Of a DNA stretch of 64,000 nucleotides, positions 941 to 40,849 are shown piece by piece. The position numbers and the translations under genes are program-made. The notes beneath the pieces are model-generated. The model saw only the letters and a program-made list of their open reading frames with translations. It was not told the origin of the DNA and did no database searches. Each line of letters starts with the position of its first letter. Within the stretch, counting starts at the first letter, position 1. Origin of the DNA: Naegleria gruberi. Its lineage: Eukaryota. Location: the NCBI GenBank assembly GCA_000004985.1, contig GG738877.1; one strand, written 5' to 3'.

Positions 941-1316
941 TTTCAATTTTACGCTTTTTTAATGATATGTTTATGAGTGTAGAGGTGTGATGGAGGAGGG
1001 AGCGAGGAATGTATTAAGGTAGTTTTTTTTGAAGGCGATTTTCTCAAATACGGTATCAATAAAAGAATGATTTCATCCTTTTACACACTTCAATTGGCTT
1101 TTTTAAGGAAATTCAGTAAGTGCTTAACAAAAAAGATTGCTGTTAATTGTTTCATTTCACTTATTGATTTGGCTCTTTCATCACCAACTTGATTTTCACC
1201 AATTTTTCAGTTCAGGTATCAAAAGAGCCAAACAGAAAACACTTTTCTTTGGTTTTTTCTGAAATTGAATTGTGTTGGTATTTGCGGACTTTATTAATGA
1301 TTAAGATCTTTCAGAA

Positions 1317-1389
1317 GCTGGCGTAGCTCAGTCGGTAGAGCGTTGGTCTAATAAGCCATTGGTCGCCCGTTCGATCCCGTCCGTCAGCA
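1317..1389 (+). tRNA. tRNA-Ile(AAU)-like; possibly a degenerate copy
   Basis: Acceptor GCTGGCG/CGTCAGC pairs 7 of 7 with one G-U. The D-arm is canonical (GCTCAGTCGGTAGAGC). The anticodon loop is CTAATAA, reading anticodon AAT, and the T-loop is TTCGATC. By eye the T-stem pairs only 3 of 5 and the anticodon stem 4 of 5. Confidence 0.55.
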
Positions 1390-1671
1390 AATAATTTTAT
1401 AATCCAATCTTTTTATTCTGCAGTTATTAAGAAAGGTGTTTCAATTTAAGATTCTCAGTATGATCTTAAATAGGTTTCATTCTATTGCCCATTTTTTAAA
1501 ATTCATTTTACACATACCATTTCAGCCATAACATTTGACATCAACTCTCTAATATTGTGTCAACTTTCTTCAGTCACCACAAAAAAAACAAATTCAAAAC
1601 TCCCCACAGCTCTCATCCAAGAACAGGACAGAGCAACAAACAACACTTGTATTCCACTCCATTAACACAAG

Positions 1672-3384
1672 ATGACATCTTCAAGATTTTCATTAAAAGC
1701 CCTAAAAGCAACCACAAATTCATCTTCAACCCCAACTATCAGTACTACACAAAACGGTGGCAATAGTAGAAATAACAGTGCCTCCACTCCAACCCTCCCA
1801 TCAGATCAACAACAAATTCATCATCATTTAGATATTGCAACCGATCGAAGCCAAACGACTAATGGTAACAATAGAAATAGCATTCACAGTCATCAATCCT
1901 ATCAAATTAATAATAATACAACTCCTTCCTCGGCAACAACACCTCGAACACCAGCAGCAACCATAGGTGTTGCTTCTGGAGTCAGTACTTCTTCTTCATA
2001 TAATCACACAATAACTGTTGATTCAAGTTATGTTGGTGGTAATAATCACATTGATGATGACTTGAATAATTGGAAACCGATTAGTAGAAACAATTCGAAA
2101 AAATCACTTTCGTCTTCTTTCCGTAAATTGCTTTTTGGTTGTAGAAATGTAAGAGGGGATGAAGAAGTTGAACAGGAGAAGAAAATGATTAGTCGATCAT
2201 CATTGTATTTACCTGATGATCAATTATTTAAAGAAACATCAGAAACTTTGGTAGATGATGCTCATCATAATTCTGCTCACGTAATGGCATTGGTTAGTCC
2301 CAGAGGTAAATCATCACCTAGAACTAGTGCAAATCTGTCACCTGCTCGTCATGACGCTGAAATGAAAAGGAGAAGCGTTGAAAGCCCAACCATGATGTTA
2401 ATCGCAGCGAATCAATCACCATCTTCATCTCATCATCATCATACAACACCAAGTGGAGGTTCGAGTAACTACTCACTAAGAAATAAGATATTTGCTGGGG
2501 CTATTCCAGAAGAGAGAGCTGAGGAAGTAATTTTGAATAGTGACTATTCACAAAAAGTTCAATTTCATTTTGAAGGACAATTTGAAGTCAAACAGTGCCA
2601 TAATTTGGAAACTATTTCCGATTTGACTGCATTCAAGGATTGTATCACTCCATTTGTGAAAATTGAGTGGTTTGTCGAGTTTTTCAATACACAAGGTTCT
2701 TTGAAAAACAAGATGGTTCCAATGCTGAAACCAACTCCTAACACTGATACAAATACATGGAAACAAAGCAAAAAGACAACAGTAACCTGTTTGGAAGTGG
2801 GAAGAAAGGAAGTTTCTTGGAATGAAGTTTTGGATTTTTCTATAACTGTGGATGGATATTTGCATAGAAATGTTTTGGAATTTTACAAAAAGAATAGTGA
2901 ATCGTCTCTATTGGATCAAGTAACCAAACCATATGGAGAGAATGTCATAGGAATTTTGAGAGTCAAGTCTCATCTCTATGACTATGACGATTTACTCCTA
3001 CAGGAGAATATCATTTCACATCATACAATGGAATTCCCAATAACTCTTAAAACTTTAATGAAAAATTCTGGTGCTACTTCTCCTTCCCTAAAGATTGAAT
3101 CATACATTGAAAATTTTGGAAATTCAAATTCTCCACTAGGTACCGTTTCTACACCATCTCATGTTAAATTGCAATCTGTTGGAACATCTAAAGGAACAAT
3201 GTCTCCAACACCTCAAGAAAGTGCCATCTCTGGTTTTGGTGAAAATACAATCACCATGTTTGAAAAAAATCAACCAGTGAATGATTATCAAATGGTTCAA
3301 GATTCTGATTCAGAAATTATCCTCACAATAGTACCAGTTATTGAATTGTCTTACTATGTCAAAATGCTTGGTACTTCTGTATAA
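1672..3384 (+). CDS. S/T/N-rich protein with a C-terminal C2-like domain
   Basis: A 570-aa ORF starts at a real ATG. The N-terminal half is low complexity. The C-terminal region PFVKIEWF...VSWNEVLDFSITV...ILRVKSHLYDYDD resembles a C2 beta-sandwich. Confidence 0.55.
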   Translation: MTSSRFSLKALKATTNSSSTPTISTTQNGGNSRNNSASTPTLPSDQQQIHHHLDIATDRSQTTNGNNRNSIHSHQSYQINNNTTPSSATTPRTPAATIGVASGVSTSSSYNHTITVDSSYVGGNNHIDDDLNNWKPISRNNSKKSLSSSFRKLLFGCRNVRGDEEVEQEKKMISRSSLYLPDDQLFKETSETLVDDAHHNSAHVMALVSPRGKSSPRTSANLSPARHDAEMKRRSVESPTMMLIAANQSPSSSHHHHTTPSGGSSNYSLRNKIFAGAIPEERAEEVILNSDYSQKVQFHFEGQFEVKQCHNLETISDLTAFKDCITPFVKIEWFVEFFNTQGSLKNKMVPMLKPTPNTDTNTWKQSKKTTVTCLEVGRKEVSWNEVLDFSITVDGYLHRNVLEFYKKNSESSLLDQVTKPYGENVIGILRVKSHLYDYDDLLLQENIISHHTMEFPITLKTLMKNSGATSPSLKIESYIENFGNSNSPLGTVSTPSHVKLQSVGTSKGTMSPTPQESAISGFGENTITMFEKNQPVNDYQMVQDSDSEIILTIVPVIELSYYVKMLGTSV

Positions 3385-3861: not shown

Positions 3862-5577
3862 ATGAGGCATTCTAGGCCTCCCGTATATAATCACTTTCAT
3901 CATTCTAGCAACAATAATGGAGGATTAGGTCGGGATGATTTTCTTATGAATAGTAAAGATAAATTTAATGTGGATCTAAAATCATCACTTAATGATTTGC
4001 AAATAACAAATAGTTTGAGGAAAAGTATGAATAGGAGAGAATCTATGGAGGATTTGACAGTATTTTTGGAAAAGAATCAAAATAGTGGATTACTCCCTAT
4101 TCAACCAACACCACCTCCGTTGAATAGGGAAGATTCTTTGGCCAATGATGTTTTTACTTATCAGGATAGTATGAAAGAATTTTCTTTGGAAGAATTGAAA
4201 CATCATCACCTTAGACGTCTAAATGAATCTAGGAATGAATCATATAGAGCCAGTAACTATTTTGAATCGGCTGCCTCGCTCATTACCACCACAACCGAAG
4301 AGCAAAACTATTATGACGAAGATGACGAGAATATAGCTATTGAGGGTGTTGATAGAGAGAGTGACATTATGCTCCACAGTGATGATGAGGACTATCAAGA
4401 TGAGGATGATTTCGAGGGTCAAAATCATCTCCTTGGTAAAAAAAAAGTTAAGGTTTTCCCTTTCCTTGTGGATTCTCCACCTGATTTGAAAAAGAAAGGC
4501 CGAACAAAAGCATTACAAGTTGCCTACAATAAGAGAAAGGAAAAACTTCAGAGAGTTAAACAAGAGCTAGAAATGGGTAGAACAAGTCCAACACTCTTCT
4601 CTATCAATTCACAAACACCTCCTCCTTTCAGAAAGAGCCCTTGTCCTCCACTGGATATTTTCCATCAAAATAGTTTTCACAAGAAAAAGCCAGATCCTCT
4701 CCTCTCCTCAATCGAATCCCTCCTTGTACAAATACCTCACCAATCATCCTCAGCCACCTCAATATCGCAACAGAATCATCACAACCTCTCCACCTTTGTT
4801 CCAAGCAAAGAAAGACCCTCCTCAATGAAGGCAGGTCATCGAAAGAAGAATTTAACCAGCAGTGCTGATGGAACTAAAACAAGTCGTTCAGTCTCCTCAA
4901 CCAATGTAAACTTGAACTGTTTACAGAAGGATCCTATTCCTGATGATTATTTGGGGCATCACATTGCAACAACTTCATCACGAATACAGTCCAAATACAA
5001 GGAACACTTTGCAGTTTCGAAAAATCCAATAGTAGTTATTGCAAATAGAAATCAATATAAGGAGAAAAAAGCTGATAAGGAAAAAGCTTTACAAAACAAT
5101 TCTTCCAGTTCTTCCTCTCTACCACTTCCCATCTCCAACTCTCAACCATCCCAATCTCTTGCTCCTCCACACAAATCAAACAATACCACAACAACCAGTA
5201 CAGTTAAGGAGCCAATGAATAGAGCTCCACTGTATAAAATTCCCCAAGCTCCAAAGAGGAAGAAATTAACACCAGAAGATTTGGGACTAACCTATCAAGC
5301 TAGTTTAGAACTTGATAAGGGACTTCCAACATCTTGTCAAGTTGATGCAAAGAAGGTAATCATGCAAACTCTTATCAATTCTTGGATTGGTATTGGACCT
5401 TCACTAGGAGATGTAAATGTTGAAAATAGAAAACCACTCAATTTGAAACCTTCCAAGATTACCTCTTCCAATCCTGAGGAAAGAAGAAAGGAAATTTTGA
5501 AATTAATGTACAAGGACAGGCAAACAGAGGTGAAGGAGAACATTCTGAAACCAAAGCAAACAAAGAAGAATAGGTAG
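3862..5577 (+). CDS. hypothetical S/P-rich acidic/basic protein
   Basis: A 571-aa single-exon ORF with an ATG start. It is compositionally biased and I recognise no domain. Confidence 0.5.
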   Translation: MRHSRPPVYNHFHHSSNNNGGLGRDDFLMNSKDKFNVDLKSSLNDLQITNSLRKSMNRRESMEDLTVFLEKNQNSGLLPIQPTPPPLNREDSLANDVFTYQDSMKEFSLEELKHHHLRRLNESRNESYRASNYFESAASLITTTTEEQNYYDEDDENIAIEGVDRESDIMLHSDDEDYQDEDDFEGQNHLLGKKKVKVFPFLVDSPPDLKKKGRTKALQVAYNKRKEKLQRVKQELEMGRTSPTLFSINSQTPPPFRKSPCPPLDIFHQNSFHKKKPDPLLSSIESLLVQIPHQSSSATSISQQNHHNLSTFVPSKERPSSMKAGHRKKNLTSSADGTKTSRSVSSTNVNLNCLQKDPIPDDYLGHHIATTSSRIQSKYKEHFAVSKNPIVVIANRNQYKEKKADKEKALQNNSSSSSSLPLPISNSQPSQSLAPPHKSNNTTTTSTVKEPMNRAPLYKIPQAPKRKKLTPEDLGLTYQASLELDKGLPTSCQVDAKKVIMQTLINSWIGIGPSLGDVNVENRKPLNLKPSKITSSNPEERRKEILKLMYKDRQTEVKENILKPKQTKKNR

Positions 5578-5860: not shown

Positions 5861-8752
5861 ATGAGTCATCATCACAATAACAACCACCACCAACAGATGT
5901 TGAATCAATCATCCAATTCTCCACACCTTTCTTCCACCAGCAATGGTGCTGTTACTTCCCAACAACATCACAATACCACCACCACACCAATAACCTCCTC
6001 CACATCAACAACAACGACAAATAGTACACCCTCTAGTATTCAATCATCAACAACGACCACTCCAAATTCCTCCTCCACCAATAATAATAATACATTTCCC
6101 ATCCTCATTGGTGGAGTTTTACTTTCCAATCCTTCTCCTTCATCTTCCTCGTCAACAACAACAACAACACAAATCATCACATCACTTCATCAAATCCTCC
6201 GACAAGTAATAATACCAATAATACTACGACAATTACAACAGAATCGGCACCAAATAGTAATAATTTAAATGCTGCCACTTCATCCAATGATGGAAATATG
6301 CCTCCGAATGCAATTGTTTATAATTCACCAGTAACACTCTATACAGTGGCTTGTACCCATTGTAGAAAGCAACACAAGAAGGTTAGTATTTAAATCTTTA
6401 ATACCTTTTATTAAATAATATTGTTATTTGTAAAGTGTGTAAGTAATATTAAATACATTTGGAGAATGTTTACAATTTTAATAGGATCGTAAAATGCCAA
6501 GTTGTGACCGATGTATTCAGAAAGGAATTAAATGTGAATATAAAGAATCGAAAAGAACACCAAATGGTCAACCTGGTCAACCAATTGAAACTAGTCAACC
6601 ACAAGAAAAATCAACGAGGAAAAAGAAAAAATCAAAATCTCATTCATTTGTATTGGAATCAACAAATGGAAAGGATGAAAAAAATGATAATGAGATATCA
6701 ATTGAAGAGGAAGGATTATCAAAGAGACAAGTTATTGATTTTTACTTTAGTTTTGCAAGTGATGGATTTCCTCTAATGAATAAGGATGATCTGGAAAAGT
6801 GTCCATCTCTGTATTCAGTCTATCTCAAAGATATTGATGAGGAGAGAATGATTATCAAGGAAGATGAAACAGTAGATAATGAAAAAGTAAATAAGGAACT
6901 GGTGGCATTGTTTTTGGGAACTAAAGCTGTTTGTGAAGTGAGATGTGGAATGATGGAGGTTAGTGAAAAAACAGCCAAACTTGCCCGAGCAGCAGTTAGT
7001 AGATATTTTGATAGTCATGAAAGCTTTTTCGTTGCTACTACCTATGCTCTCTTAGCTCAATTTGAAATTTGGAACTCGAGAATTACCAATGCCAAGTTTT
7101 ACCTTCAATTCCCAGCTTTTTATCTCAGAAATAAGTATCTTCAAAAACCAGGATGTGATATTTCACCAACTTCAGGCGAACACGAAGTTGGTCAATGTAC
7201 AAAATGTATGTCAATCATGACCAAATACGAAAAGAATTTGGAAAACAATATTAATTGGGTGGAAAGATGTACCCATTCACTAAGTTCAAATAATGGAAAT
7301 AATACCAAGAGAACATTTTTTGATGTTTCCTATGCAGATGGAGGATTTATTAGCGAAATTCCTAGATACTTTACAATTTTCACTGGTTTGAAATTTCCAA
7401 CTGAATGGATTTCCTCTCTAAATCAAGAAGTTACAGTTAGTAATTGCTTTGATTATTTACAATTGTTAGATTCAATCTTTGCATTTACGACGAGAAACAT
7501 GAGAGAAAGATCAAATATTGAGCTAATCGCCTCAAAGACCAATCCAACACTAGATCTGGATAACAATTCTCCATCGTGCATCTTTCAAGGAGATTATCAA
7601 TATATTGCCTTGTATGAGAGAATGCTAGATGTCGTATTGAATGGATTAAAGATTAGAATTCTCACCAAATTGGGATGTAGTGGTAGAGATCGTGAGAGAG
7701 AAACAATTGAACAAGCAGCATTGAATATTACAATGGCAACTCAACACGAACTGTTTCCACTCTTCCTTCCATATCTAGTTCCATATATTTCAGCAGCAAC
7801 ACTTGTACATTTGAGAGTGTTAAAGATGAATATTCAATCCTATAGTTCGAGCACTTCAACAATTGTTTCACAACATAGAGCCAACAATTGGTCAACTTTA
7901 ATGTATTATGAGGATATTTTGAAAAAGGACTTGAGAGCTATGCAAATTATGGCTAAAAGATTCAAGCTAGTCAGTCTTAACTATAGCAAATTAATGAAAG
8001 AAATCGAGGACACATTTGAAAATTTAGAAAATCTGAAACGATCCACAAAACCAACAATTACAGAATATGAAACTTCTCTTCCACAACAATTCCTGACCTA
8101 TCGACATAATCCACACAATCAGCGAGCACACATGTTGCATCCTCCATCACAAATTCAATCCAATAATATGCAACAAGCCACGAATTTCAATTTTAATCCA
8201 CCACAAGTCCCTCAACCATCAGCATCTTCCTCAACAACCATGCAAAATCCTGGTCTATTCTCACAAATCATACCAAATAATTCACTTCCACTCCATATGG
8301 AATTGCAATCTGCTTCATATTTTGCTAATTTAATGAGTTCACACCAGATGGCCGGTGGTCCACCAATGAGTGGTTTTGACACAACCTCTGCATTTGGAAA
8401 TCTTTTAATGATGCAACAGAATCCTCTCATCAGTAATCCATCACTATCTTCCTCTAGCTCAGCAAATACAAACACAAATAATAATAATAATAATGGTATG
8501 GAATCATTTGGTGGTGGTTTTGGTGGTTTTGGAATGGGAGGTGTGTTTGATCCATTCTTAACTGAGGAAGATTTGGATTTAATCTTCTCAATTCAAAATA
8601 AGGAACAACAACAACAGGTCAATAATTTATCAGTCAACCAAACTGTTTCAAGTAACAATTTGGGTGATCCACTCCAATCAATTTCCCAACTTAATAGTGC
8701 AACAATTCATGATATGATTGATAAACATGTTCAACAAAATGAAAGAAGATAA
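5861..8752 (+). CDS. Zn(2)-Cys(6)-like binuclear-cluster transcription factor, two exons with an intron at about 6382-6484
   Basis: Exon 1 ends ...LYTVACTHCRKQHKK at 6381 and is followed by gttagt. The intron is AT-rich and ends atag at 6484. Exon 2 begins DRKMPSCDRCIQKGIKCEYK, a Gal4-like CX2CX6..CX2CX6C motif. Two reading frames are open across 6086-6300, so the 5' exon structure is uncertain. Confidence 0.6.
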
Positions 8753-8847
8753 ACCAATTGATATTCAAAAATTATTTATTTTCTATTGCAAAAATGTGTT
8801 TTGGTGTTTTTAATGTACATTGTTTTTGTTTCCTCAATAATAATTTG

Positions 8848-11367
8848 TTATTGTAAAAATACATGAATTGAATCTCCTTCACTCAAATTCTTATCAACAA
8901 AAAAGAATTCATCAACATCAGCAAGAATAGTATTCTTAAATCTATCTTGTGAGCTGATCTTTAAACTCAAAACTTTTGTCTCTCCACTATTGCTACTACA
9001 GGCCGAGGTAGAATCGTTGGACAACAATGAACTGGCATCAGAAGTTGAAGTAGAAGTTTTTGGATCTTCCAACTTGGATTGTTTAAAGTCTTTTGCTCTG
9101 TCTGTCAGTAATTGTTTGATATTCTCCAGTGCAAGTTTACCTTGAATAATTTGAATATTATTTGTTTGAGAAACTTCAAAATGTTTCTTATTGACCTTGA
9201 GAGCGGTTGTGTAAAATTGATGGAAATGTTTAGAAATTTCAGAATCCTTTTCGTTTGGATAAATTCCAAACATTTGTTGTTTCTGAATTCTTAATTGAGT
9301 TTGATTAAATTCGTTAATTTGGTCTAAAAGTTTTGAACTATCACTTGCAATATCATCATCCACTTGATAAAATTGGACAATGATTGATATTTCATCTGGA
9401 TTCTTGTTTCTTTTACAAAGAGTTTCTATTTCTGATGAAAATTTAGTTCTCTTACTGTCACGATCATACTTATCAGTACTACTATCAGATGGAACATGAT
9501 CACTATTATTGGCTCCATTATTATTATTATTATTAATACTGTGAACTGGAGTTGTTGCACTAAATGTAGAAACAGTAAGTGCCTTTCTCTTATGTGTTCG
9601 AGGAGAACCATTTGTTGGTGAATAATCAGTTTGAATTGCTGACACACGATTATTCAAAGGGAATGCCAATGTTGGAGTGAGTGGACTTCCAGTACTGTCT
9701 CCATCTCTCATAGATCTTTGTTTGATTCCTTCCCTTGGATTGTTTCTTCTGATTTTTGAAGGATCGTAGAGTCCACGTTGGAACCTCCACTGTTTGTTAT
9801 AACATGTGGCACATACAGGTCCAGATGTGATTTGATCAATATTTTGTGGGAATGTATTTCTATACGATTCAATATTTCCCTCATGAATTGAATAATTCTT
9901 CTTGAAACTAACTTCAGCATCTGAACGACCACAACAATGACAATTGGTTACTTCTCTATTGGGATCTTCGGTTGTGTTAAGTTTTGGTGATTCATTCACT
10001 AATTTAGTTTTCTTAGTCATATTTGGAGTTCCCATAATGTTTTGTTGTGTGGAAATTTGATTTTGCTGTTGATTCATAGGTCGTGAATACAAGTTTCCAT
10101 TCATTTGTTCATAAGTGTGAATCATTAATCCATTAGTTGACTGATTTTGATCGTGTTGATGTTGCATTACATTTTGATTATTTCTCATGACAACATCATC
10201 TAGATTTGTGCCATTTGTGTGTAAATGTTGTGAATTATCAACAACTGAAGTACTTTGTGTATGTTCCACATAAGGAGCAACACTGTCAAAGTATGTGAAA
10301 TTTACCTTGTCACCTCTCCAATCATTGTTATTTTGTGAAAGTTGTAATTGAGTTGAATTATTCATCATTAAATTATCATGATTTGATTGATCTACAAGAT
10401 TTGTATCATTTTCTTGTTGATTTCCTAAGAAATTCAAAATATTATCTTGAATACCATTTGTATAATTCGAAAGTCCAACTTGTTGTTGTAAAGTAGCAGA
10501 ATTCATTGAATGGTGTTGTAATGAAGAATGCATCATTTGATTAGGTTGCGTCAAATGATGATGATTGGCAGTTGAATGATGAACAACTGGTTGTGAAAGA
10601 CCCAAAGCAGCTGCATTTGGCATGGTTGAGTAATGATGATGGTGTGGTTGCATCATGTGTTGTGATTGTTGTTGAAGTAACATTTGTTGCATAACAAAAT
10701 CCTGATGATCAACTGGAGAATTTGCTTCATTTCCAGCACTTCCTCTCATTGCCATATTCAAAATTAAATTACTGTAATCGTTATTCGTTGAATGTGAATT
10801 CAAATTATTTGAATTTGGATCTAGACCATTATTTGAGAAGGAGGAATGTTGATGCAGTGCAGAATTATTCAATTGTGGATAATTCATTGATTGTGTTTGT
10901 AAATGTTGTTGTTGTCTAAATAATTCTTGTAAAACTTGAGTATTTCCTGTATTCGTTCCCATGCCACCAACAATATTTGAACTACCAATAGAACCACCTC
11001 CATTACCCATCATGTGTTGTTGTTGTTGATTACTTGATGAGATTGAATTGTTGTGAGCTAACTGTTGCTGTTGTGAGGAAGAAGAAACACTTGGATCCAC
11101 CATTGTATTATTGTTATTATTGGAGGACATGTTATGAAGTTGATGATGATAGGGTGAAGTTGAGGAGGAAACAAGTGAATTGCTACTTGAGGACATGCCA
11201 GCATTCACTACTGTATTATTGGCAGTATTGTTGAGATTGGGAGATAGTGGTTGTTGTTGTGATTGAGTAGTGGCAGCTGTTGTTGATGGGCTAACGTTCA
11301 TCATTAAATTATCAGCTGTCGAATAAATAGTATTAAGTGTTGCTGCTGCTGTTTGAGACATCATCAT
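8848..11367 (-). CDS. Q/N/S-rich nuclear-type protein with a Cys-pair motif near the C-terminus
   Basis: An 839-aa ORF with poly-Q, poly-N and poly-S tracts. It contains CHCCGRS...CATCYNKQWRF. The spacing does not fit a GATA finger. Confidence 0.55.
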   Translation of the reverse strand: MMMSQTAAATLNTIYSTADNLMMNVSPSTTAATTQSQQQPLSPNLNNTANNTVVNAGMSSSSNSLVSSSTSPYHHQLHNMSSNNNNNTMVDPSVSSSSQQQQLAHNNSISSSNQQQQHMMGNGGGSIGSSNIVGGMGTNTGNTQVLQELFRQQQHLQTQSMNYPQLNNSALHQHSSFSNNGLDPNSNNLNSHSTNNDYSNLILNMAMRGSAGNEANSPVDHQDFVMQQMLLQQQSQHMMQPHHHHYSTMPNAAALGLSQPVVHHSTANHHHLTQPNQMMHSSLQHHSMNSATLQQQVGLSNYTNGIQDNILNFLGNQQENDTNLVDQSNHDNLMMNNSTQLQLSQNNNDWRGDKVNFTYFDSVAPYVEHTQSTSVVDNSQHLHTNGTNLDDVVMRNNQNVMQHQHDQNQSTNGLMIHTYEQMNGNLYSRPMNQQQNQISTQQNIMGTPNMTKKTKLVNESPKLNTTEDPNREVTNCHCCGRSDAEVSFKKNYSIHEGNIESYRNTFPQNIDQITSGPVCATCYNKQWRFQRGLYDPSKIRRNNPREGIKQRSMRDGDSTGSPLTPTLAFPLNNRVSAIQTDYSPTNGSPRTHKRKALTVSTFSATTPVHSINNNNNNGANNSDHVPSDSSTDKYDRDSKRTKFSSEIETLCKRNKNPDEISIIVQFYQVDDDIASDSSKLLDQINEFNQTQLRIQKQQMFGIYPNEKDSEISKHFHQFYTTALKVNKKHFEVSQTNNIQIIQGKLALENIKQLLTDRAKDFKQSKLEDPKTSTSTSDASSLLSNDSTSACSSNSGETKVLSLKISSQDRFKNTILADVDEFFFVDKNLSEGDSIHVFLQ

Positions 11368-12071
11368 ACTGTCAACAAACGTTCTAAATCTGATTTAAAA
11401 TTAGTTACAGAAACTGTCTCTCTGTGTGAGTGTGGTTTGGTTGATTCTTAGAGAGAGTGAATGACAGTGGCAGATCCTTTCAAAGTGGCAGAATCTCTGT
11501 TTTTTTTTGTGCTGTGGAAAGGTTTCTTGTTGAAAAAACGTGCTGGAATGAGAGTTGTTTTTTAAACTCTATTCACACAAAGAAGTGTTTGACACGTGAG
11601 GTAAATTGCGCAGTTGTGCGAAAATTGAAATGCATTACCTTCGTGAAAACACTACTCAATCTGTCAGATAACAAATGGGGGCTTGGTTGTACTGCTTAGG
11701 TAAGCAATTATTAGGAAAAGCTTTTCAATTATTGAAAGATAAATACTCTGAATGTAGTGAATTTAAACCGCAAATTGAGGTGCTTGCCACTTTTGACTTA
11801 TTTACAATTGATTATTCTTTTAATAAAGACATGTCGTGCAGACGGGTTGTGTTTCTTTCAACCACACGACAAGATGGATTCTTTGTTACTGTACCTGGTT
11901 TCCTTTAGAATACATTGGGAACTTTCGTATTGAAATATTTGGAATGGTGTTGGTGACAGGTTAACAATTTAGTCTAATTACACCGAATTACCACGTGTTA
12001 AGTCTCATCACAGTGAGCTACATTGAATAGTTTTTAAATATTGGTCATCTTTTGGCGATCAGTCAACATAT

Positions 12072-22583: not shown

Positions 22584-24149
22584 ATGAGTGAATTATTAAA
22601 GACTAAATTCGATGAACTTATGTTGTTGGTTCAACAAAAGCCTTCTAAACAAGCTCTGATTAAATGGCTCTTATTCAGTGGTGGTATCTTGATTTTGATT
22701 TATGTATACAAGGCTAGTGGAATTGGAAAACTCTTCCGTAAGAAGCCTAGAGCAATCCGTGATCCAAATATCAACTCTACTCACCGTTCTAAACAATCAA
22801 CTCTTAAAGAAAACGAATATGATGTTTGTATTGTTGGTGCTGGTCCATCAGGAGCTACTTGTGCCTATTATCTTGCCAAGTTTGGATACAAAGTTTTGGT
22901 TTTGGAGCAAAAGTATTTCCCACGTGAAAAGACTTGTGGAGATGGTTGTACTGCCAAAACTCTTGCATACCTGAAGGAAATGGGTGTTTTACAAGAATTA
23001 GAAAAGGAAGGAAAGGTCGCCAGTATGGGAAGTGGAGGTATTGTTGGTCCTAATGGTTTGAGTTTCATTGAAAATTCTGGTGCTACTATTGAAAAGATCA
23101 GTGGTGACAATAATTGGACACCAAAAGCAATCAAGAGAATTCACATGGACGAAAAGGTTGCTCGTGCTTGTCAAAAGATGGGTGCCGATCTTAAGGAAGG
23201 TATGGATGTCACCAAGGTTAGTCGTAACTTTGTCGGATTGAAGGGGTGGTCTATTGTTGCTAATCACACTCCAAAGGAAGATGGTGAAACCAAGCAAGTT
23301 AAATTTTTGGCTTCAGTTCTCGTTTGTGCTGATGGTGCTCCATCTAAGCTTGCTACCTCACTCAAGATGGTCAATGAAGAACCACAAGGTATTTCTTCAA
23401 GAGTTTACGTTTCGAACCACAAGATGGAAACTAATTGCATTATCTTCTATCCTAAGCCAGTTTTGCCAGGTTATTGTTCAATGTTTTGTCACTCTGATGG
23501 TGATGTTTCTTTGTGTACTTATATTGTTCCAGGTGGTAAACCAACTAAGGATGATTTGGGTAAACTCCATGAATATTGTACAACTGAAGATCCATTGATT
23601 ACAAAGGCTCTTGGCCCAAATCCTCAATGGCAACAAATGAAGGCTGCTTATTTGAGATTGGGAGGTATTTCTAACTCATACGGTGATAATATTCTCGTTA
23701 TTGGTGATGCTTGCGGTTTGATTAATCCAATGACTGGTGAAGGTATTCACTACGCTATGGATAGGTATGTTTTATTTTTTTTAAAAATTATTTACTGACC
23801 TATTTCAAATAGTGGTAAAATGGCTGCTGAAGTTTTAGGTGATGCCATTAAGGGTGGTGATCTTTCAAAGAATAAGCTCAAACTCTATCAAGATATGTGG
23901 GAATACCAATTTGCTAATGACTTCCATTTCTCTAACGAAGCTGCTGTTCTCGTTGCTAAGTATCCACTCCTCCTTGATGCTGTTGCTTCAGCTGTCAAGA
24001 AAAAGGGTGGTAAATTCTTGGCTGAATTTGCTATGGTTTCTTCAGGTGTGAAGAGTTGGTCTTGGTTCTTGAGACCTGATGTTGCTTTGCCACTTCTTCT
24101 TGAAGTTGTTCTTCTTTCAATCTTTGGTACTCCAAAAAGACAAAAATAA
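22584..24149 (+). CDS. FAD-dependent geranylgeranyl reductase family (ChlP/GGR-like) oxidoreductase, 2 exons with an intron at 23765-23812
   Basis: FAD fingerprint YDVCIVGAGPSGATCAYYLAK..LVLE and family signature GDACGLINPMTGEGIHYAMD. The signature is split by an intron running GTATGT...AAATAG. There is an N-terminal TM segment. Confidence 0.75.
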
Positions 24150-31888: not shown

Positions 31889-32141
31889 TTTTTAACTAAA
31901 TGTTTTTACACCTCAATCAGCCGTTTTGAAAACAAATAGAGGAGAGCGAGAGCAGCAGAAGCTTTCATCTCACATGACTGCTTGGTGAATAGAGTGAAAG
32001 AGCATATTGAATGAGCGGTTAGTACCACCAGCAAGTTAGTTCCTTCTGTTACCAAAATATTGTAATCTTCAAGAAAAAAAATTTGGTACTTTGTTGCTGA
32101 AGTGGATGACTGTTTCATAATGGCCATATATTGTTGTTCCC

Positions 32142-32745
32142 TTAGTGATATGAATCTTCATGGAGATAACCTCTGTACAAATCACCATGTCTTTTAATGA
32201 ATTCAACTGAGTTCATTACTAATTTGTATAATGATTTCAAAGTAATAGATTCATGATAAAAGTTTCTCAATTCTTCAAATTGATAGTTAATATATTCATT
32301 CCAATCTTCAATTATAAGTCTTTCATCAGTTGTTAGATCAATATTATCATTCATTGGAATTAAGTATTTGTATGTTGAATGATCATTTTCAAACTTCATT
32401 ATTTTTCTTCTAATTGAATCATTAATTCCAGATTGCAGTATTGACAGAAACATAAGGAGCATCTTTAGTTTTGAAATTTGAAAATGTTGAATTAGAATCA
32501 TCTCCTTCAGAAACAAGAATATTCCTTTGATGTTAATTTACAACAATTATTATGTTCAACAAATTAGTACCACTATCTTTAGTATATTTCACAAATTCAT
32601 CAACTCCAGAGAATTCATTCAATTTATCAATTAGTGGAAAATCCTCACGCTTTTCAGATGGATATTTGGATCCAAATACATCCGCAAAGTCAAAATACTG
32701 TGAGATGTTGTGGATCCTGTTTGGCGGAATCCCCTCTAATTAGTT
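32142..32745 (-). CDS. hypothetical small spliced gene, tentative
   Basis: The minus strand at 32745-32545 reads LEGIPPNRIHNISQYFDFADVFGSKYPSEKREDFPLIDKLNEF... The downstream ORF ends ...NEYINYQFEELRNFYHESITLKSLYKLVMNSVEFIKRHGDLYRGYLHEDSYH. The junction between the two is unresolved. Confidence 0.25.
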
Positions 32746-33361
32746 TTTTACAAATTAAATCATTTATTTTTTCTTGGCTGGATTCAAATTCCTTCTTGAG
32801 TGCTTAGGTAAAGGAATTCCTTTAATCTGTGATTTTCTTTCTTCTTTTGGAATTTCATTAATTTTAGGTGTTCTGTTGTTTCTATTGGTTCAGTTAGTTT
32901 CTGGTTTTTCAGATTGAGATGAAGATGGAATAGAATTAGAAGAATATGGTTCAGATGAGTAGTTGTTACATTGCAAATTAATAAAAACAAGATTGAGAAC
33001 AAGTAATTATACTAATGGGTATTAAAGCTTAGGGACTGTTTCATCTTTAAGGTGATTCAGCCTTGAGACCTGCTTTAATGGATATAAATCTTTATTAGCA
33101 TTGGCTGTTTCGAATCGAAGAAGCGAGAGCAGAAGCACCTTGTGAACCAACCTTGGCGTTGTTTGAGTCTTTGCCAGGTGATATCTTTTGCTAATTGTTC
33201 TTCTTGTTCTTCTTCGTGTCTTGAACAGGAGGTGAAGGCATAACAGAACTATCAGATGAATTAGGTTATTGTGGTGATAATTTTTGAGCATGGAAAAATA
33301 CTCAACTTATATTTTATTAAGTTTACAATGAAAACAAGTTAATTCTTCACTTCGCTCAGAA

Positions 33362-33637
33362 TTAGACACCAGTGGCTGCTAATCCAACACGTCTTAAATA
33401 TCGTTTCTTGGATTTAGAATTAAGCACCCAATTACCCGCTGTAGCAATAATCACCTCAGAAACTCCCTTAGAAGCCAACTCGGTGGCTGTACCTATACGA
33501 AAGCTATGTCCAGAGACATGATTAGTTCCTACGGACATTGCATTCTTAATAATATATGATAGATCAGTTGTTTCTAAATACAGGTCGTCGAACAAAGAGA
33601 ATAATGGAGAATCTCCAGACTTGAAATGTTTAACCAT
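33362..33637 (-). pseudogene. tyrosine recombinase C-terminal catalytic fragment (box II)
   Basis: GHSFRIGTATELASKGVSEVIIATAGNW...KRYLRR. This is the H-x-x-R...G-N-W...Y tyrosine-recombinase signature. Confidence 0.65.
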
Positions 33638-33747
33638 TATCGAAGTTTACTGTGATAAATGGAATACCTAGGAGTTTTGTTAGACTTCCATCAAGGTTTG
33701 GTAAAAATTCCAGAAGACAAAAAGATTACAGCTTTAGAATTCATAGA

Positions 33748-33972
33748 TCAAGAAACAATTGGATGGATGGACAGGTTCTGATTATTTATATTCCATAAAA
33801 TGGGAGTATGTCAATGCACTAAGCCGCAGCAATAAGCTTGCAGAGTATCGAGTATTGCTTAGAACTTTTGCTGTTAACTAAAAAACTTACCAATTATCAG
33901 ACATTACAAGAAATTTCACAATTAATTACGAAGAACTAGATTGTTTTCTGTTAAAGCAACAATGTATTACTT
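33748..33972. repeat. left copy of a ~225-bp inverted repeat pair; partner at 37972-38207
   Basis: I aligned it by hand against the reverse complement of 37972-38207. The match is near-identical, with a few substitutions and one ~6-nt indel. It covers caagaaacaattggatggatggacaggttctgattatttatattccataaaatgggag... Confidence 0.8.
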
Positions 33973-35939
33973 AATTATTAATAAATTTATTTTTAAAAAA
34001 TCCTTGTGTTGAATCTATCGGATAATCCGGATCCAGGATTCACGTTTTTATTGGAATCTTGGATCCAACTGATCCGTGTGGGATTTGGATCAAGGATTTT
34101 CCATCCCCTAGGTGTAGGGAATACTTGTTGTGCATTATGTTGTGGAGGTCTAGTATTAATTAAAAGATTGATTCTGTTTATTGGTTTTATCTTTTTATCT
34201 TTATTCATCATCTCTTTTGGGGTTTTCTTTGGAATGATTGTTTACTATTTTGAAACAGAAGACATTCTAGAATTAGATATAGATTAATAGACTTCCGGAA
34301 AAAGTTTTGCTAAAAGTCGACTTTTTTAAGGTACTTTCACGCTAATTTGCAAAAAGGCGCCTAAAAGGTGCCTTTTTTACTAAAAACTACTTGAAACACA
34401 TCCAAAGTTTGTTCAAGAAAATCTTGAGCAACTTTCAAACTGTTTTCAAATAATTCCTCAAAACGTTCAAGTATTTGCTGAAAAAACCCCAAGGGCCTTC
34501 AAACTTCTGAACTCACTCTCTTTCTTAACTATATCCCATCCAAAAAATCCACCAATTCCTTAAGAGATCCAAGGTTTTTGAATGTCACCTGGTAATTGTT
34601 CTATAATGTCCTTTAACTCGGCACTCATAATTGCAGAGTAGAGGTCACCATCAGATTTTTTAAATAGATTAAAAATATTTTTTGCCCATAGTAGATTGCA
34701 TTTTTGTATTTTGGGCGTAAGTTCCTCTATAGTTGAAAATAAAGTTGTGTTTTCCATTCCGTCAATACTACTCAGTGCTGATGCTAACGTGAAAAGAGCC
34801 ATATCAGAGTTGGAGGCTGAATTAGTTGGACAGGAGGCAAAAGAGCTTTGTGATAGGGATCTGGTGAGAATCATAATGTATTTTTTTTTAAGTCTAAAAT
34901 TATTGGTTGCCAAGACTCCAAGTTTGCAATGTCGATAATGGCTGAAAATGCAAAAAATCAAAGAACTGAAGAAGGGAATTCGCTGTGGGTTTAATCAATT
35001 TTTTGAAATTAGGCAACATACAAGACTCCACCAACAGAGTATTTTGTTCAATTCCATACGGTGATTGGGTCAAAGTGCTTACTGGAATGTTATCAAAGAA
35101 TACCACATTTCCATTTAGTTTTACTTTACGAGAGTGGATAGATATAATTGAGATACTAAAAATGTTCGAATTACCTTTCCATTATTGGAAATATTTGACT
35201 ATGCAATCCCCATACGCTCTATTAGCCCTTCATCTACATTTATCCATATCTGAAAACTTGAGTTGTGAACATAATTATTTATTGGGATTAAAACCTGATA
35301 TGTATTGGTTTTCAAGTTGAAAAAATAACAAAACAAGGAGATTTGTTGGATCAGGCATTCACAAACCTATGGAAAAACTCTTTACATATCTTTTTCGGGA
35401 CTGATACTGAAGCTGTGAAATGGTTTGTTCAAAATGACAAGGATAATTTCTTTTCTTGGAACACAACAATCACTTCTTTACGCAAATGTTTACGTTAAGG
35501 TATTGAGAACTGCCTAGAGAAATTTAAAACTATTAAAAACAAATGTGTTACGTTCTGTTACTTATATTGTAGGAAACAACAACGAGATTATGGGCAAAGA
35601 TTAATCAATTCCTTACTACCAATCTTATTTACTGTTTTGCTTGGTGTTGTTGATTTTTGTGCCTTTCAGGGTAATTCTATTATCCTAGATTCTACTGCTT
35701 TTGCTGTAGACACTGGTTTATCAATTGCTAATGCTATACTTTCACTCGCCTCTTCGATAGGGAATGCAGTCCTCCCAATGCAGCAAGTGTTTATAACTCA
35801 ATCGTGAAAGCACTTGTTGATGCTGTTGATTCAGGAGGTGGTTTGTTTACAAAGTTCCCTCCTTCAAGTATTGAAAAAGATTGTCCTTCATAGAGTATAA
35901 TGAAGGGCAATCTTTCTTGGATAATCTACTTTGATACTA

Positions 35940-36639
35940 GATTACGATAAATTATAGAGGTCTCCAGGTCTTGCTAATAATCTGAAACCAATAATTAAAA
36001 TGGCTGTAGTTAAATTAAATGTGAATTCATCGTGGGAAGCCACGGAATCAATATAATTCTTAATATCATAAGCTGAAACTCCATTTCTTTTTAGTTTCTT
36101 TCTATCAACAATGTAAGTATACCTTAAGTCCTTTCTTTAGTCTAGCAAAACTATTGGGAACATTAAGTTTCCAACCTTCAACGTTGAAGAACGAGAAAGA
36201 ATTGAAGAGCTGGCTTCAAATTGTTTAAATCATACCCTTTCTTATTAACTGAAAGGTAAGCTGCAAAGCATTCTATTGCATAAGGATTAGATCTTGGAAT
36301 ATTGTGAATCACTAAGAACCATTGGAAAGCTCCATAAACTTTGGAATATTTCTGAATGGTTGAATTGGCTAGAGAAATTGATAGGTAATTTCTCATCAGT
36401 AATATAGTTGACCGTTCACTTGAGCTACCAGGAATGTTTGATCTTCGAAGTTGTTGAATAATTCGGTGTACGGATCCACGATAAGCATTCTTCTTGGAAC
36501 CTTTCTTACTTTTAAGGATATCCTTAATAGTATTGGGAACCAATGAGAAGTTGGCCACTCCGGCACTACAAAAGTTCCCTTCGCTCTCTAATTTGATTAG
36601 ATGGAAAAGTGCTTGGGGAATCAGACCTAAAGGAGGCAC
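35940..36639 (-). pseudogene. tyrosine recombinase N-terminal core-binding domain and box I; ends at a stop
   Basis: Core-binding-like block: STIQKYSKVYGAFQWFLVIHNIPRSNPYAIECFAAYLSVNKKG. A second frame reads ...AILIIGFRLLARPGDLYNLS*, which is box I with the Arg. Confidence 0.55.
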
Positions 36640-36651
36640 GCAATAATTCAG

Positions 36652-37817
36652 TTAGTCTTTCTCCCAGGGTTGACCGAATGCATCGGTTTCCATCCAACTG
36701 TTGTATGTTATTGTCACGGCGAATGGGTCTACTGTATGGTGACCGAATTCTTCTACCAAATCTATCAATTCTTGCGAAGATTTCCAATCTCCTAATCTGC
36801 TTAGTCTGTCTGCAATCTTGTTTTCTCTTGATGGGATGTTGACTACTTTGCTGATGTGCCAATCTTCTTTGATTAAGATTATCCAAATGTCTCTTGCAAT
36901 TTCGGATAAATGACTGAGATAGCCGTAACCTTTTGCTACATAAGATAGAGCTGTAGAGTTGTCCCCTCTTATTTCAATGTGAGTATCTTTGGGAAACAAT
37001 CTCAATCAGCTTGCTTCTTTGAAGAATTGAAATATCGCTATCAATTCTTTCACGTTGAATGATGAATCTATTTCGAACTTGCCTACGACGATAGTTTTTG
37101 AGGAGTGGATTGCAAATCCTTCCAGAGATGCATCTGAATTGATTATTATTGACTCTGGAGCGTCGAGTATTAACCAAGAGCCTTTGGATGATTGGATAAT
37201 TTTTCGTAATACCCTCAAATCTTTGGCAGGGCCTCGATTCACTAGCATACTTCCTTTTGAATCTACTCTTATTGTCATTTGCTTTCTTAAACTATCCAGA
37301 AATGGTCTGATCGCCGGATCTGCCAGAGATAGAAATTCCATCTTTCCAATAAACTTGGCTATGAATCTTGTTTGTGCTTAAACCGAACGGAAGGCATTGA
37401 AAGTGGTATGTTTTGCCTTCGAAGATGAATCCTAATAGGACTTTGTTGTTTCCTTACTGGAACTTGAAAACAACCTTTCTTTAAATCCAACTTGCATGCC
37501 CACATCCCTTTTCTTATGAATTTCATAACTTTTTGAATGGATTCCATCTTGAGTGAGTCTGTGCTTTTGCCATCGTTTATCTTTCTTAGGTCCAAGATAA
37601 ACCTCTATTCGGCTGAACCTTTCTTTGGGACAACGTTGATAGGATTTAGAACTGGATTTAAAGAATAGGTTATAATTTGGTTTTGTAACATGGAGTCAAT
37701 CTCTCTCCTTATCCATGCTTTCTCTTTCTGAGAGAACTCCTCTGGTGGTAGTTTTTCCATTGGCTGGAATCTGAATCGCTTCAAAACCACCAGAACCGGC
37801 ACCCAATTTAATGGCAA
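36652..37817 (-). pseudogene. reverse transcriptase plus RNase H of the YR-retroelement; frameshifted
   Basis: RT blocks: LNPINVVPKKGS, KLDLKKGCFQVPV, YHFQCLPFGLS. RNase H blocks: NSDASLEGFAIHS, GDNSTALSYVAKGYGY, HISKVVNIPSRENKIADRLSR. The pieces are spread over at least three frames. Confidence 0.75.
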
Positions 37818-37971
37818 TATAATTTAAGTCAGCAATATTCTGGATGAATTCAATAGCTTGAAGCCATTCAACTAAATCAAAAGAGTACCATTTCTCAATC
37901 TTTTACAAACTTGTACAATAATGTGAGATTGGGCTAGTAGTAAAGGATAACCTTTACTTCTAAATTCTTTT

Positions 37972-38207
37972 GAAGTAATACATTGTTGTTTACACTTGCT
38001 TTAACTGGAAAACAATCTAGTTCTTCGTAATTAATTGTGAAATTTCTTGTAATGTCTGATAATTGGTAAGTTTCTTCGTTGACAGCAAAAGTTCTAAGCA
38101 AAACTCGATACTCTGCAAGCTTATTGCTGCGGCTTAGTGCATTGACATACTCCCATTTTATGGAATATAAATAATCAGAACCTGTCCATCCATCCAATTG
38201 TTTCTTG
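37972..38207. repeat. right copy of the inverted repeat pair, lying immediately 5' of the RT fragment
   Basis: Reverse-complement match to 33748-33972. Identity decays at both ends (about 37970 and 38210). Confidence 0.8.
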
Positions 38208-38904
38208 TTCTTCTTTAATTTCCTCTCTTTGATTCTTTTAATTTGCCTAATTTGACATATCAGTCTAGTGCCTTTTTGTCAAATTGTAAAAAATAATCAC
38301 CTTGTTTCAATATTGTCAGTTCATCATTTAAATTAATATCTTCTGATTCATTAAATTGAGAAAGTATTTGGAAGATAATTGACTTGTTTCTGAGCAAAGT
38401 TGTAATTGTTTTTGTTTGTCAAATCTTCTAGCTCTTGCAACATCACACGAGTACTTATTTGCAAAAGTAAGATGTCATCTTTATCCATAAACATAGATAC
38501 AAGTCTTGATTTCAATTCTTTAACATCTTTACCAATTCCTGAGAATGTTTATTTATTAACGTTTGAAATTGTTCCATTAAAAATTGGAAGTGCAATACAC
38601 AAATGTTTATTCATATGATTTTACATTGAAAAGTGTCGAGAAACATTAATAAGGCAAGCCCGTATTCTTTACCGTACTAAAAGACCATCCAAGATTTAAA
38701 CATTCATTTAGATTTTTTTCAAAATCTAAAGAAAGTGTTTCAGAATTTTTCCTTCTGAAACTTTCATCAAATAGAGTAAACTAGTTTGATAATAATAAGC
38801 ACGTATTCTCTTAATTACTAAATTATAAACATGCCTATCTTATCTCGAATACTTGCTTTTTTTAAATTAATTGTTCAAGAATTTAAGGAATTAGGCGGGA
38901 AAAA

Positions 38905-40245
38905 ATGAGCACAAATACAACAACATGGCAATCATCCACAAATAAACAACAATACAAGCACCTCCATCGATCGGCAACACAGATACAGGTATGTTGTTGT
39001 GTAATTTTCTTATTGTTATAATGAATTAGAGCCAATGGAGAGGTCATAAAACAAGGAAACAGATCACAGATTGGGCAATGAAGGAATTTGAAAATATTGT
39101 GATGGAGATCGAAGGAAAGGATTCGGAAATATCTTGGAATTCATCGAAGTTGCATTCCTTACCAATGCCATCTGTTTCAAATACAAAATTGAGGTAATTT
39201 TCAAAGAATTTAAATATTTGAATTAAAAATCGGAAATTGATAATCAAATAATGTAGTGAGGATGAAAATGATTTGGATAGGATTCTATCAAACTTTGTAA
39301 ATAGGAATGATGCTTCACCTTCATCGTCATCAAATGAACCATCTAATCAACCAATATTCATGAAGAATGCTCAGAAATTATTCGAGGAAAAACTGAAAGA
39401 AGCATTTCAGGAACCCTCGGTTCAAACCCCAGAACCTCAAACTCTAAATACTGGTATGAATACATCCGTAATGAACATTCCTAAAATTACAAAAGAACAG
39501 GAAATTCAAACAGAAACACTCAGAACCTCAATAATATCTAAAGAACCTCTGCAAGCAATAACTCCTCAAAATAGAAGACTTGTGACAGTTTCCACAAACA
39601 CCAGTATTGCATTTGATGGAATTCCAAAAATTCAAGAACAAAAAACTCAAGATTTATCTATTGAAATACCTCTCGAAGATACTTCATCAGTTCAATCACA
39701 AGAAGATTTGTCAGACATGTTAGATGAAAGTGCCATAATGATGTCTAATTTGGACATGCTTAAAAGTTTTGATTTCTCAGAAATGAAGAAATCATCAGAT
39801 AGCACCATTTCAACCCAGGCACCAACCAAATCAAAGGAGCCATTCATGCCTCAACAACCAATTCAATCAAAACAAAATGTTTCAAACGATTTCAGTACAA
39901 CTAGATTGAAACAGAGCCAAGAAATTCCACCATCCAAAAACAACTCTATCCTTTCCAATAATAATACTACCAACAATTCTATCAAGTCCAATTTGACTGC
40001 CTCTGTAAATCAAACCACTCCCTCACCTAGCTCATCACAAACTAGTGAAAAATTGCAACAACAGCAAAAACAAGCCAAACAAGAATTACAACAACAAATG
40101 AACATGCTACGATATGAAATTCAATTGGCTGAGGAAGCCTATTCGAGGAGAAAAAAGGTAAGTTGTCTATTTTCATATTTCGAGATTTGTTTACATTTTC
40201 AATGAATAGGAACTTGTTGAAGAAAGGAAGAGGCACATTAGGTAA
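38905..40245 (+). CDS. IQ-motif-containing S/T/N-rich coiled-coil protein, 4 exons
   Basis: Exons are 38905-38988, 39030-39193, 39257-40157 and 40210-40245, with GTATGT, GTAATT and GTAAGT donors and TAG acceptors. Exons 1 and 2 read MSTNTTTWQSS...ATQIQ|SQWRGHKTRKQ, which is an IQxxxRGxxxR motif. Exon 3 carries a C-terminal coiled coil. Confidence 0.55.
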
Positions 40246-40345: not shown

Positions 40346-40849
40346 TTATTGTTGTGCTGACTTGGCAGCAATATATTCCTCGATTAATGACTTCATACTC
40401 TTCTTTTCTCTCATAGCCTTCAACTTTAATTCGTGCTTTTCCTTCATTGTGAGACGAACGTGTTGTGGTAAATGTTGAGTACCTTCAGGGAACAATTCAG
40501 CGGTGGAGACTGATTTGACTGAAAGTAAAAGTCTACATTTATAAATTAAACCTCTAATTTGTGGAGAGTCCTTATGTACTTGAATTTGATGAACTTTCTT
40601 TAATTTGAGTACCTTTATCGAGTCTTGAACATCTTCGGTTTGATGGAATGGACTTTTTACCAAAGTAATAAAGAACAATCTGCCTCGAGCAACTTCCTCG
40701 GATGCTTGTTGTTGTTGTTCAAAATTGCAAGCAGAAGTGGAGAAGAGACGAGGTGTTGTTGAGAGTGAGTTTAAGAGTGAGCAATTAATGTTTTGTGTTT
40801 TGGTAATATTTCGGACGACGCCGCATGATGATGAGATGAAGCTTTTCAT
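40346..40849 (-). CDS. mitochondrial ribosomal protein L30 (uL30m)
   Basis: It has a presequence-like N-terminus. The L30 ferredoxin-like core is LFFITLVKSPFHQTEDVQDSIKVLKLKKVHQIQVHKDSPQIRGLIYKCRLLLSV. Confidence 0.65.
   Translation of the reverse strand: MKSFISSSCGVVRNITKTQNINCSLLNSLSTTPRLFSTSACNFEQQQQASEEVARGRLFFITLVKSPFHQTEDVQDSIKVLKLKKVHQIQVHKDSPQIRGLIYKCRLLLSVKSVSTAELFPEGTQHLPQHVRLTMKEKHELKLKAMREKKSMKSLIEEYIAAKSAQQ

Follow-up and report, generated by a model that had tools for sequence, protein, structure and literature searches.

A 228-bp inverted repeat among DIRS-type retrotransposon remnants in Naegleria gruberi that probably duplicates the 3' coding end of a DNA transposon gene

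Results

Location and measurement of the inverted repeat

The window analysed here is the whole 64-kb stretch of Naegleria gruberi NEG-M DNA; seven of its long ORFs are identical to annotated NEG-M proteins encoded on a single scaffold of 394.7 kb. The repeat region is intergenic, with the annotated gene EFC42859 (27878-31888) on one side and EFC42860 (40346-40849) on the other, and the two arms of the repeat sit within a nest of about 5.5 kb of dead mobile-element pieces. The window contains no runs of N, and there are no gaps in or near the repeat region. None of the region's ORFs was present in the protein collection, and exact look-ups of the window's proteins did not retrieve the locus from another assembly. 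A plus-strand gene that follows the nest on its right (39030-40205) shows an apparent IQ-like motif (...WRGHKTRKQI...) in a short upstream exon, followed by a 310-aa ORF; the stretch at 38475-38900, between this gene and the rightmost mobile-element fragment, which derives from the gene named T below, was without a match to anything tried. Elsewhere in the window, the ORF at 22584-23798 is identical to protein P0038 (contig of 5185 nt) from the ENA metagenome assemblies, which also hold a cluster mate of the ORF at 40346-40849 (P0046, at least 90% identical, contig of 3376 nt), and run ERR1078381 (PRJEB11402) contains copies of a DIRS-type element that are 85-95% identical to that of the window. 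Together, these matches indicate that public 'metagenome' data include DNA of N. gruberi or of a species very close to it.

A repeat search found an ungapped inverted repeat of 204 nt (33745-33948 versus 38008-38211), the arms of which are 98% complementary and separated by a spacer of 4059 nt. It is the sole direct or inverted repeat of at least 60 nt anywhere in the 64 kb, and its longest exact inverted match reaches 105 nt, compared to 16-20 nt in 10 shuffles. By gapped local alignment, the left arm extends over 33745-33972 (plus strand) and the right arm over 38211-37973 (minus strand), with 222 of the 228 aligned bases matching, 6 mismatches and two indels, one of 1 nt and one of 10 nt. 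The initial annotation, which had placed an inverted pair of ~225 bp at 33748-33972 and 37972-38207 with a few substitutions and one small indel, was essentially right, and the precise pairwise alignment that it proposed yields ~97% identity in aligned columns. The first mismatch (33748) falls within the microhomology of a junction described below, and therefore the duplicated block may start at 33749.

Both arms correspond to the tail of gene T

An ORF of 114 aa running through the right arm matched, in an exhaustive HMMER/phmmer search, the extreme C-terminus of protein P0028 (aa 689-787, E 6.6e-23), together with the C-termini of P0030 and P0031 and the 344-aa protein P0029; P0028, P0030 and P0031 are 769-817 aa long. 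We refer to the gene encoding these proteins as T. With the same four proteins as queries, tblastn mapped both arms, the left one with E 4e-12 to 2e-6, placing P0028 aa 712-775 at 33753-33947 with an in-frame stop, and aa 626-787 at 38474-37973 with frameshifts. The left arm (33745-33972, plus strand) thus covers the last ~77 codons of the T gene, P0028 aa 712-775 and slightly beyond; it has an in-frame TAA and, compared with the right arm, lacks bases at two small deletions. The right arm (37973-38211, minus strand) carries the same segment with its reading frame open and ends 2 codons before the expected T stop; the T homologues terminate within 1-4 residues of the arm's inner edge.

T sequence continues upstream of this arm on the minus strand, at 38212-38474 (P0028 aa 626-709, with frameshifts; three linked tblastn HSPs, E 2e-32), and no T sequence upstream of aa 626 is present in the window. 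At the DNA level, blastn matched window 37965-38450 to positions 11278-10780 of L007, a Naegleria lovaniensis locus, and the arms are 62% identical to the N. lovaniensis T gene. These data indicate that the arms are very probably inverted copies of the 3' coding end of T, both of them pseudogene sequence, and the copied segment encodes a putative BAH-like C-terminal domain.

Beyond the left arm, the plus strand continues (33973-34120) with two codons, a TAA, an AT-rich stretch and a dense cluster of GGAT/ATCC motifs, which together form a putative native 3' end of T. The motifs number 13 in 142 nt (33979-34120) against 1.07 expected, and 6 each lie in the 3' ends of L007 (11284-11398) and of L006 (3024-3143), a copy of T from a metagenome. 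Alignment of 33973-34120 to the 3' regions of L006 and L007 was not significant (z about 2). The GGAT/ATCC motifs could be subterminal transposase-binding repeats. The terminus of T in the window is estimated to lie near 34120, taking the distance of ~150 nt from stop to terminus in the relatives as a guide.

Ends defined in N. lovaniensis mark T as a DNA transposon

The T family comprises proteins of ~770-1070 aa, with one gene per unit. N. lovaniensis contributes two members that fall in one cluster, P0029 and the 1072-aa P0041, and P0042 occurs on 6 contigs. In L007 (N. lovaniensis PYSW02000066.1), the T gene (8001-11283) lies in a unit of 3.67 kb (7765-11435) that has a 37-bp terminal inverted repeat at each end, the two being perfect copies (7765-7801 and 11399-11435; GAGGGCCCTTTCAAACC...), and is flanked on both sides by the 8-bp target duplication GCAATATA; the distance from its stop codon to the terminus is 152 nt. 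A leucine-rich repeat (LRR) gene array with a repeat period of 81 nt reaches the left terminal repeat and resumes past the right one. The terminal inverted repeats (TIRs), the 8-bp target site duplication (TSD) and the interrupted LRR array of L007 mark T as a DNA transposon, with its TIRs and TSD seen in N. lovaniensis only and the window holding only a 3' fragment. Target duplications of 8 bp are known from the P and hAT superfamilies.

The metagenome copy L006 (~600-3143) ends with ...GGGGCCCTC about 120 nt past the stop codon and adjoins LRR genes, so both T loci with readable DNA lie inside or beside such genes. No further T loci were confirmed in the JGI metagenomes. Transposase activity of T is predicted from its TIR/TSD structure. 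Searches of Pfam, NCBIfam and PDB, including a PDB profile search, gave no significant match to a transposase domain, and the C-terminal RNase H model of P/THAP9-type transposases (TNP-like_RNaseH_C) matched T weakly, below the Pfam threshold (E 0.039). A structure model of full-length T had a pLDDT of 43, too poor for a fold search. T is apparently a previously uncharacterised family of heteroloboseans. The initial annotation had regarded genome-wide recurrence of the repeat apart from reverse transcriptase (RT) and recombinase sequences as evidence against its DIRS-based reading; in spirit, this is what is seen, as the homologues of the arms are the C-termini of T in L006 and L007, neither of which gave any DIRS protein match.

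A scrambled DIRS-type element surrounds the arms

Conceptual translation of the minus strand identified a DIRS-type element with relatives P0001-P0004 at 46-66% identity, and the contigs of the relatives (L001-L003) carry gag first, RT/RNase H/methyltransferase next and tyrosine recombinase last. The window has only a C-terminal part of gag next to the right arm (37633-37971, minus strand); it begins at aa ~197 of the L002 gag and adjoins the arm with one extra base. The pol region follows on the minus strand (36399-37777; RT, RNase H and Dam-like methyltransferase region) with frameshifts and an in-frame stop, and P0001-P0004 matched it by tblastn over 37777-36568 with E values down to 2e-133 (P0001). 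Its RT/RNase H is related to the Ty3/gypsy type, and the relatives carry RVT_1. Residues 151-263 of P0001, including the YxDD motif, are missing from the window pol as the result of a 339-bp deletion at about 37373-37382 with CACA microhomology. For the Dam-like domain (PF05869), P0004 scored above the cut-off (36.8 bits) and P0001 and P0003 below it; the window aligns over this region through P0001 aa 264-595, its own translation giving no Pfam match. A Dam-like methyltransferase after RNase H occurs in DIRS1 and PAT elements and is absent from Ngaro elements.

The tyrosine recombinase gene is split into two parts lying 2.3 kb apart, with aa ~160-189 missing. The N-terminal part (35918-36384, minus strand) covers aa 6-159 of the relatives and includes box I (...LLARPGDL), with tblastn E values of 8e-33 for the L003 recombinase (L003_YR) and 5e-28 for that of L001 (L001_YR). 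The C-terminal part (33377-33646, minus strand; aa ~190-290) includes box II (HSFRIGTATE...) and was detected by tblastn (E 3e-16) and by Phage_integrase (E 0.0031), a model that matched the L001 homologue with E 4.7e-10. This part lies outside the left arm, where the initial annotation had noticed it.

Directly after the recombinase stop, a stretch resembling a gag N-terminus (33113-33369, minus strand, possibly reaching ~33020) matches L002 gag aa 1-31 and 61-106, its start being 80% identical to L002 nt 3-88. Finally, an isolated RT fragment of 93 bp (33659-33751, plus strand; P0001 aa 221-251; 78% identical to L002 over 51 nt) lies antisense to the main DIRS body and represents a surviving inverted piece of the stretch deleted from the main pol, 3.6 kb away. 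The DIRS fragments are mutually non-overlapping on the gag-pol-recombinase map, as would be expected of one scrambled copy rather than of two. From its sequence, the element looks like a single dead DIRS1/PAT-type retrotransposon, degenerate and scrambled.

No inverted terminal repeats bound the element, the sole inverted repeat being foreign T gene sequence. An internal complementary region is likewise absent: when 31900-39400 was compared with itself at high sensitivity (word 7, E up to 1), no further copy of either arm end appeared. Inverted terminal repeats with internal complementary regions were reportedly described for DIRS1 by Cappello et al. in 1985. PAT-like elements have split direct repeats, in which the 5'-end sequence is repeated in direct orientation after the recombinase gene. 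In the window, gag-start-like sequence stands right after the recombinase stop (33369-33277); in L001 it is degenerate (3981-4131), and the metagenome contigs L002 (1-90) and L003 (1-15) open no more than 10 nt from the gag ATG. No complete element was seen, and these arrangements are hints that the family may have direct terminal redundancy of the PAT type, or circular or tandem forms, rather than DIRS1-style inverted ends. We considered a circular permutation in which the DIRS copy starts and ends at gag aa ~197 and rejected it: L002 against 33368-32819 was convincing only to about aa 106-125, its alignment beyond that point was not above noise, and L005, a short contig of ERR1078381, gave no match in this region.

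For L005 (85% identical) and L004 (95%), another short contig of ERR1078381, homology to the window starts at 37971 and extends to the left only. In place of the arm, L005 holds genuine gag (...EVDAPVPDVYGGKEFRSKG) and L004 holds unrelated DNA. That the arm might be mid-gag coding sequence, as suggested by the adjoining gag C-terminus, was likewise rejected, because the L004/L005 homology ends at the arm edge and the ORF of the arm matches T. In L004 (1-135), gag is cut ~20 nt from the cut in the window (aa ~190 versus ~197), which may be a coincidence or reflect a fragile or preferred site. In an earlier survey, about 7 DIRS1-like copies in six families were counted in the N. gruberi genome, too frameshifted for phylogeny (Piednoel et al. 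2011, PMC3266345).

Each arm appears to have one native and one novel side

The outer side of the right arm is native, because T coding sequence runs on from it to aa 626. Its inner side is a novel junction, J1, at which T breaks off 2 codons short of its stop and is followed by one extra C and then by DIRS gag from aa ~197. For the left arm, the inner side is apparently native, judging from the stop codon in its expected place and the motif enrichment, and the outer side is a novel junction, J2, at which the RT fragment is joined through CAA / AGA-CAA microhomology. The junctions are all clean and show 0-3 nt of microhomology. This arrangement of one native side per arm, complementary between the two (pattern A-b-C'-b'-E), is a signature of inversion by staggered breaks or of template-switch repair.

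Between the putative T terminus and the N-terminal recombinase fragment lies a segment, X (34121-35917), without a homologue, without long ORFs that match a family and unrepeated in the window. Comparison of X with Pfam, with proteins and with L007 yielded no Pfam match, chance-level protein matches only and no L007 match. Two gag-like matches inside X (35740-35699 and 34486-34436), with E about 1, were taken as chance. We presume that X is the DNA that once lay downstream of the T fragment, its old flank. Exactly at the junction of X and the recombinase fragment stands a palindrome (35879-35912), GATTGTCCTTCAT-AGAGTATA-ATGAAGGGCAATC, with two 13-nt arms around 8 nt. Its arm bears a loose likeness to the terminal repeat of N. 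lovaniensis T (about 10/13 bases), and the window contains no other good copies of it. A partner of the T terminal repeat was not found anywhere in the window.

Discussion

Proposed origin of the inverted duplication

We propose that the arms are the tail of T within a nest of dead elements, duplicated by an event that inverted the ~4 kb between them, and assign this whole account a probability of roughly 0.6. At one breakpoint, the T fragment would have been cut by a pair of staggered breaks at a distance of 228 bp, and the stretch between them would have come to lie, as two copies, at either end of the inverted segment. The other breakpoint would have fallen within the DIRS copy, with an RT fragment on one side and gag codon ~197 on the other. 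Replicative (two-step) template-switch repair is an alternative route that would give an equal product, and we regard the chances of the staggered-break mechanism specifically as even. Staggered breaks have been proposed for the inverted duplications found at inversion breakpoints in Drosophila (Ranz et al. 2007, PLoS Biol, PMC1885836).

The inversion as such we infer from the order of the fragments. Were it undone, T (aa 626-787) would run into its stop, the subterminal region and X, which is a normal 3' fragment of T with its flank, followed by the DIRS remains. The order reconstructed in this way is still untidy, as RT aa 221-251 would stand beside gag aa ~197 and the recombinase C-terminus would be opposite to the rest of the DIRS element, which calls for at least one further rearrangement or for one complex multi-step event. 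A second inversion, with breakpoints between X and the RT fragment and inside the recombinase gene, would align all DIRS parts.

Alternative explanations

The reading favoured by the initial annotation, two DIRS copies in opposite orientation, finds no support, since the repeat is T and not DIRS, the DIRS fragments do not overlap and L004 and L005 stop at the inner edge of the right arm. In its favour, the 93-bp RT fragment by the left arm opposes the main DIRS body. Its argument against simple DIRS terminal repeats is borne out, as the element is not bounded by the arms, has no internal complementary region and extends with part of its recombinase beyond the left arm. The idea that the initial annotation had raised first, namely that the arms serve a DIRS1-type retrotransposon of ~4.46 kb as its inverted terminal repeats, would fit with the DIRS1/PAT-type gag-pol-recombinase element lying between and around them, and with the few hundred base pairs that DIRS1 inverted terminal repeats span (PMC3266345). 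We consider this practically negligible, however, given that the arms belong to the coding region of an unrelated gene, that related DIRS copies exist without them, that the recombinase C-terminus and the gag N-terminus lie outside them, with no internal complementary region, and that a target duplication is absent at both 33745 and 38211. An assembly artefact, in which a draft scaffold joined reads of two haplotypes or loci, would be conceivable for a shotgun draft whose nest ORFs occur in no other assembly of the protein collection. Against it stand the absence of gaps and the clean junctions with 0-3 nt of microhomology; moreover, the 6 substitutions and 2 indels between the arms and their four different flanks indicate distinct sequences rather than one sequence used twice, which makes an artefact very improbable.

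The arms could also descend from two independent T copies in opposite orientation, each truncated later, with DIRS inserted or rearranged between them and the repeat being the part that both retain. T is indeed a mobile multi-copy family, as evidenced by the TIRs and TSD of L007, the 6 contigs with P0042 and the two N. lovaniensis members, and nests of transposon fragments are common. Yet both ends of the shared block coincide exactly with the novel DIRS junctions, and the complementary arms, one keeping upstream sequence only and the other downstream sequence only, would need two coincident truncations at the same 228 bp. Considering also that the arms are 97% identical though both are pseudogenes, and that the terminal repeat partner was found nowhere in the window, we judge two T copies unlikely. 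Somewhat less likely again is a chimeric cDNA, for which the DIRS RT would have switched from DIRS RNA to T mRNA and back, leaving a patch of RT fragment, T tail and gag197 in a defective DIRS copy, this copy landing beside a resident T fragment and recombination between the two T stretches then flipping the 4 kb spacer. The flipped isomer would show the left arm as a 228-bp T island amid DIRS sequence of one orientation, with the resident T fragment fully native, and the microhomologies at the internal RT deletion (CACA) and at J2 (CAA) are as in template jumps. This route nonetheless needs a chance landing within 2-4 kb of a genomic T fragment with the same codons, and the T piece stops 2 codons before the stop rather than at the 3' end of an mRNA; besides, L004 and L005 carry other sequence at the junction site, and no other copy with the junction was seen.

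Consequences and significance

In DIRS replication the repeat plays no part, nor is any function indicated for it. Its likely effects are passive, in that it offers a substrate on which the 4 kb spacer can flip and, once transcribed, could fold into a hairpin. By analogy with Mu killer of maize, read-through transcription might produce a 228-bp double-stranded stem, processed by RNAi into small RNAs that would silence T transposons in trans; we hold this to be a long shot. The repeat is ordinary transposon debris, to be placed among the breakpoint-associated inverted duplications.

It can serve as a worked example of how a rearrangement by-product beside RT and recombinase sequences can be mistaken for DIRS terminal repeats. 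Annotators of transposons will gain more from the T family, with its defined ends in N. lovaniensis, an 8-bp duplication, a putative BAH-like domain and insertions at LRR genes, and from the map of a degenerate DIRS-type copy, of which N. gruberi has few.

Comparison with known systems

Mu killer is an inverted duplication of part of a transposase gene in maize, the hairpin RNA of which silences the MuDR family. The N. gruberi locus is similar in being a partial inverted duplication of a transposase gene away from intact copies, and differs in that its arms are only 228 bp and its spacer is 4 kb; we know of no active T copy in N. gruberi. As in cut-and-paste TIR transposons of the P and hAT kinds, T of N. 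lovaniensis consists of a single long gene between 37-bp TIRs, is flanked by an 8-bp duplication and interrupts a gene. Unlike them, T has no significant transposase match in Pfam, NCBIfam or PDB and has a putative BAH-like C-terminal domain, which to our knowledge is not a standard part of P/hAT-type transposases.

In DIRS1, the inverted terminal repeats are accompanied by internal complementary regions (Piednoel et al. 2011, PMC3266345). These regions match the extremities of the repeats and lie beside the 3' repeat. The N. gruberi locus shares with DIRS1 an inverted repeat of a few hundred base pairs associated with an element encoding gag, RT-RNase H-methyltransferase and tyrosine recombinase. 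In contrast to DIRS1, the arms here are foreign to the element and do not form its boundaries, an internal complementary region is absent and related copies are without arms.

A close counterpart is found in the Drosophila breakpoints of Ranz et al. (PMC1885836). Those cases are of chromosome scale and were checked against outgroup genomes, while here an inversion of 4 kb in transposon debris is inferred, and the N. gruberi locus shows, unlike them, extra scrambling of DIRS beyond one inversion. In both, a non-repetitive breakpoint stretch is present twice, inverted, at the ends of the inverted segment, each duplicate keeps its original neighbour on one side only, and substitutions and small deletions have accumulated later (PMC1885836). 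Read in this way, the locus would provide a small-scale inverted duplication at an inversion breakpoint outside animals.
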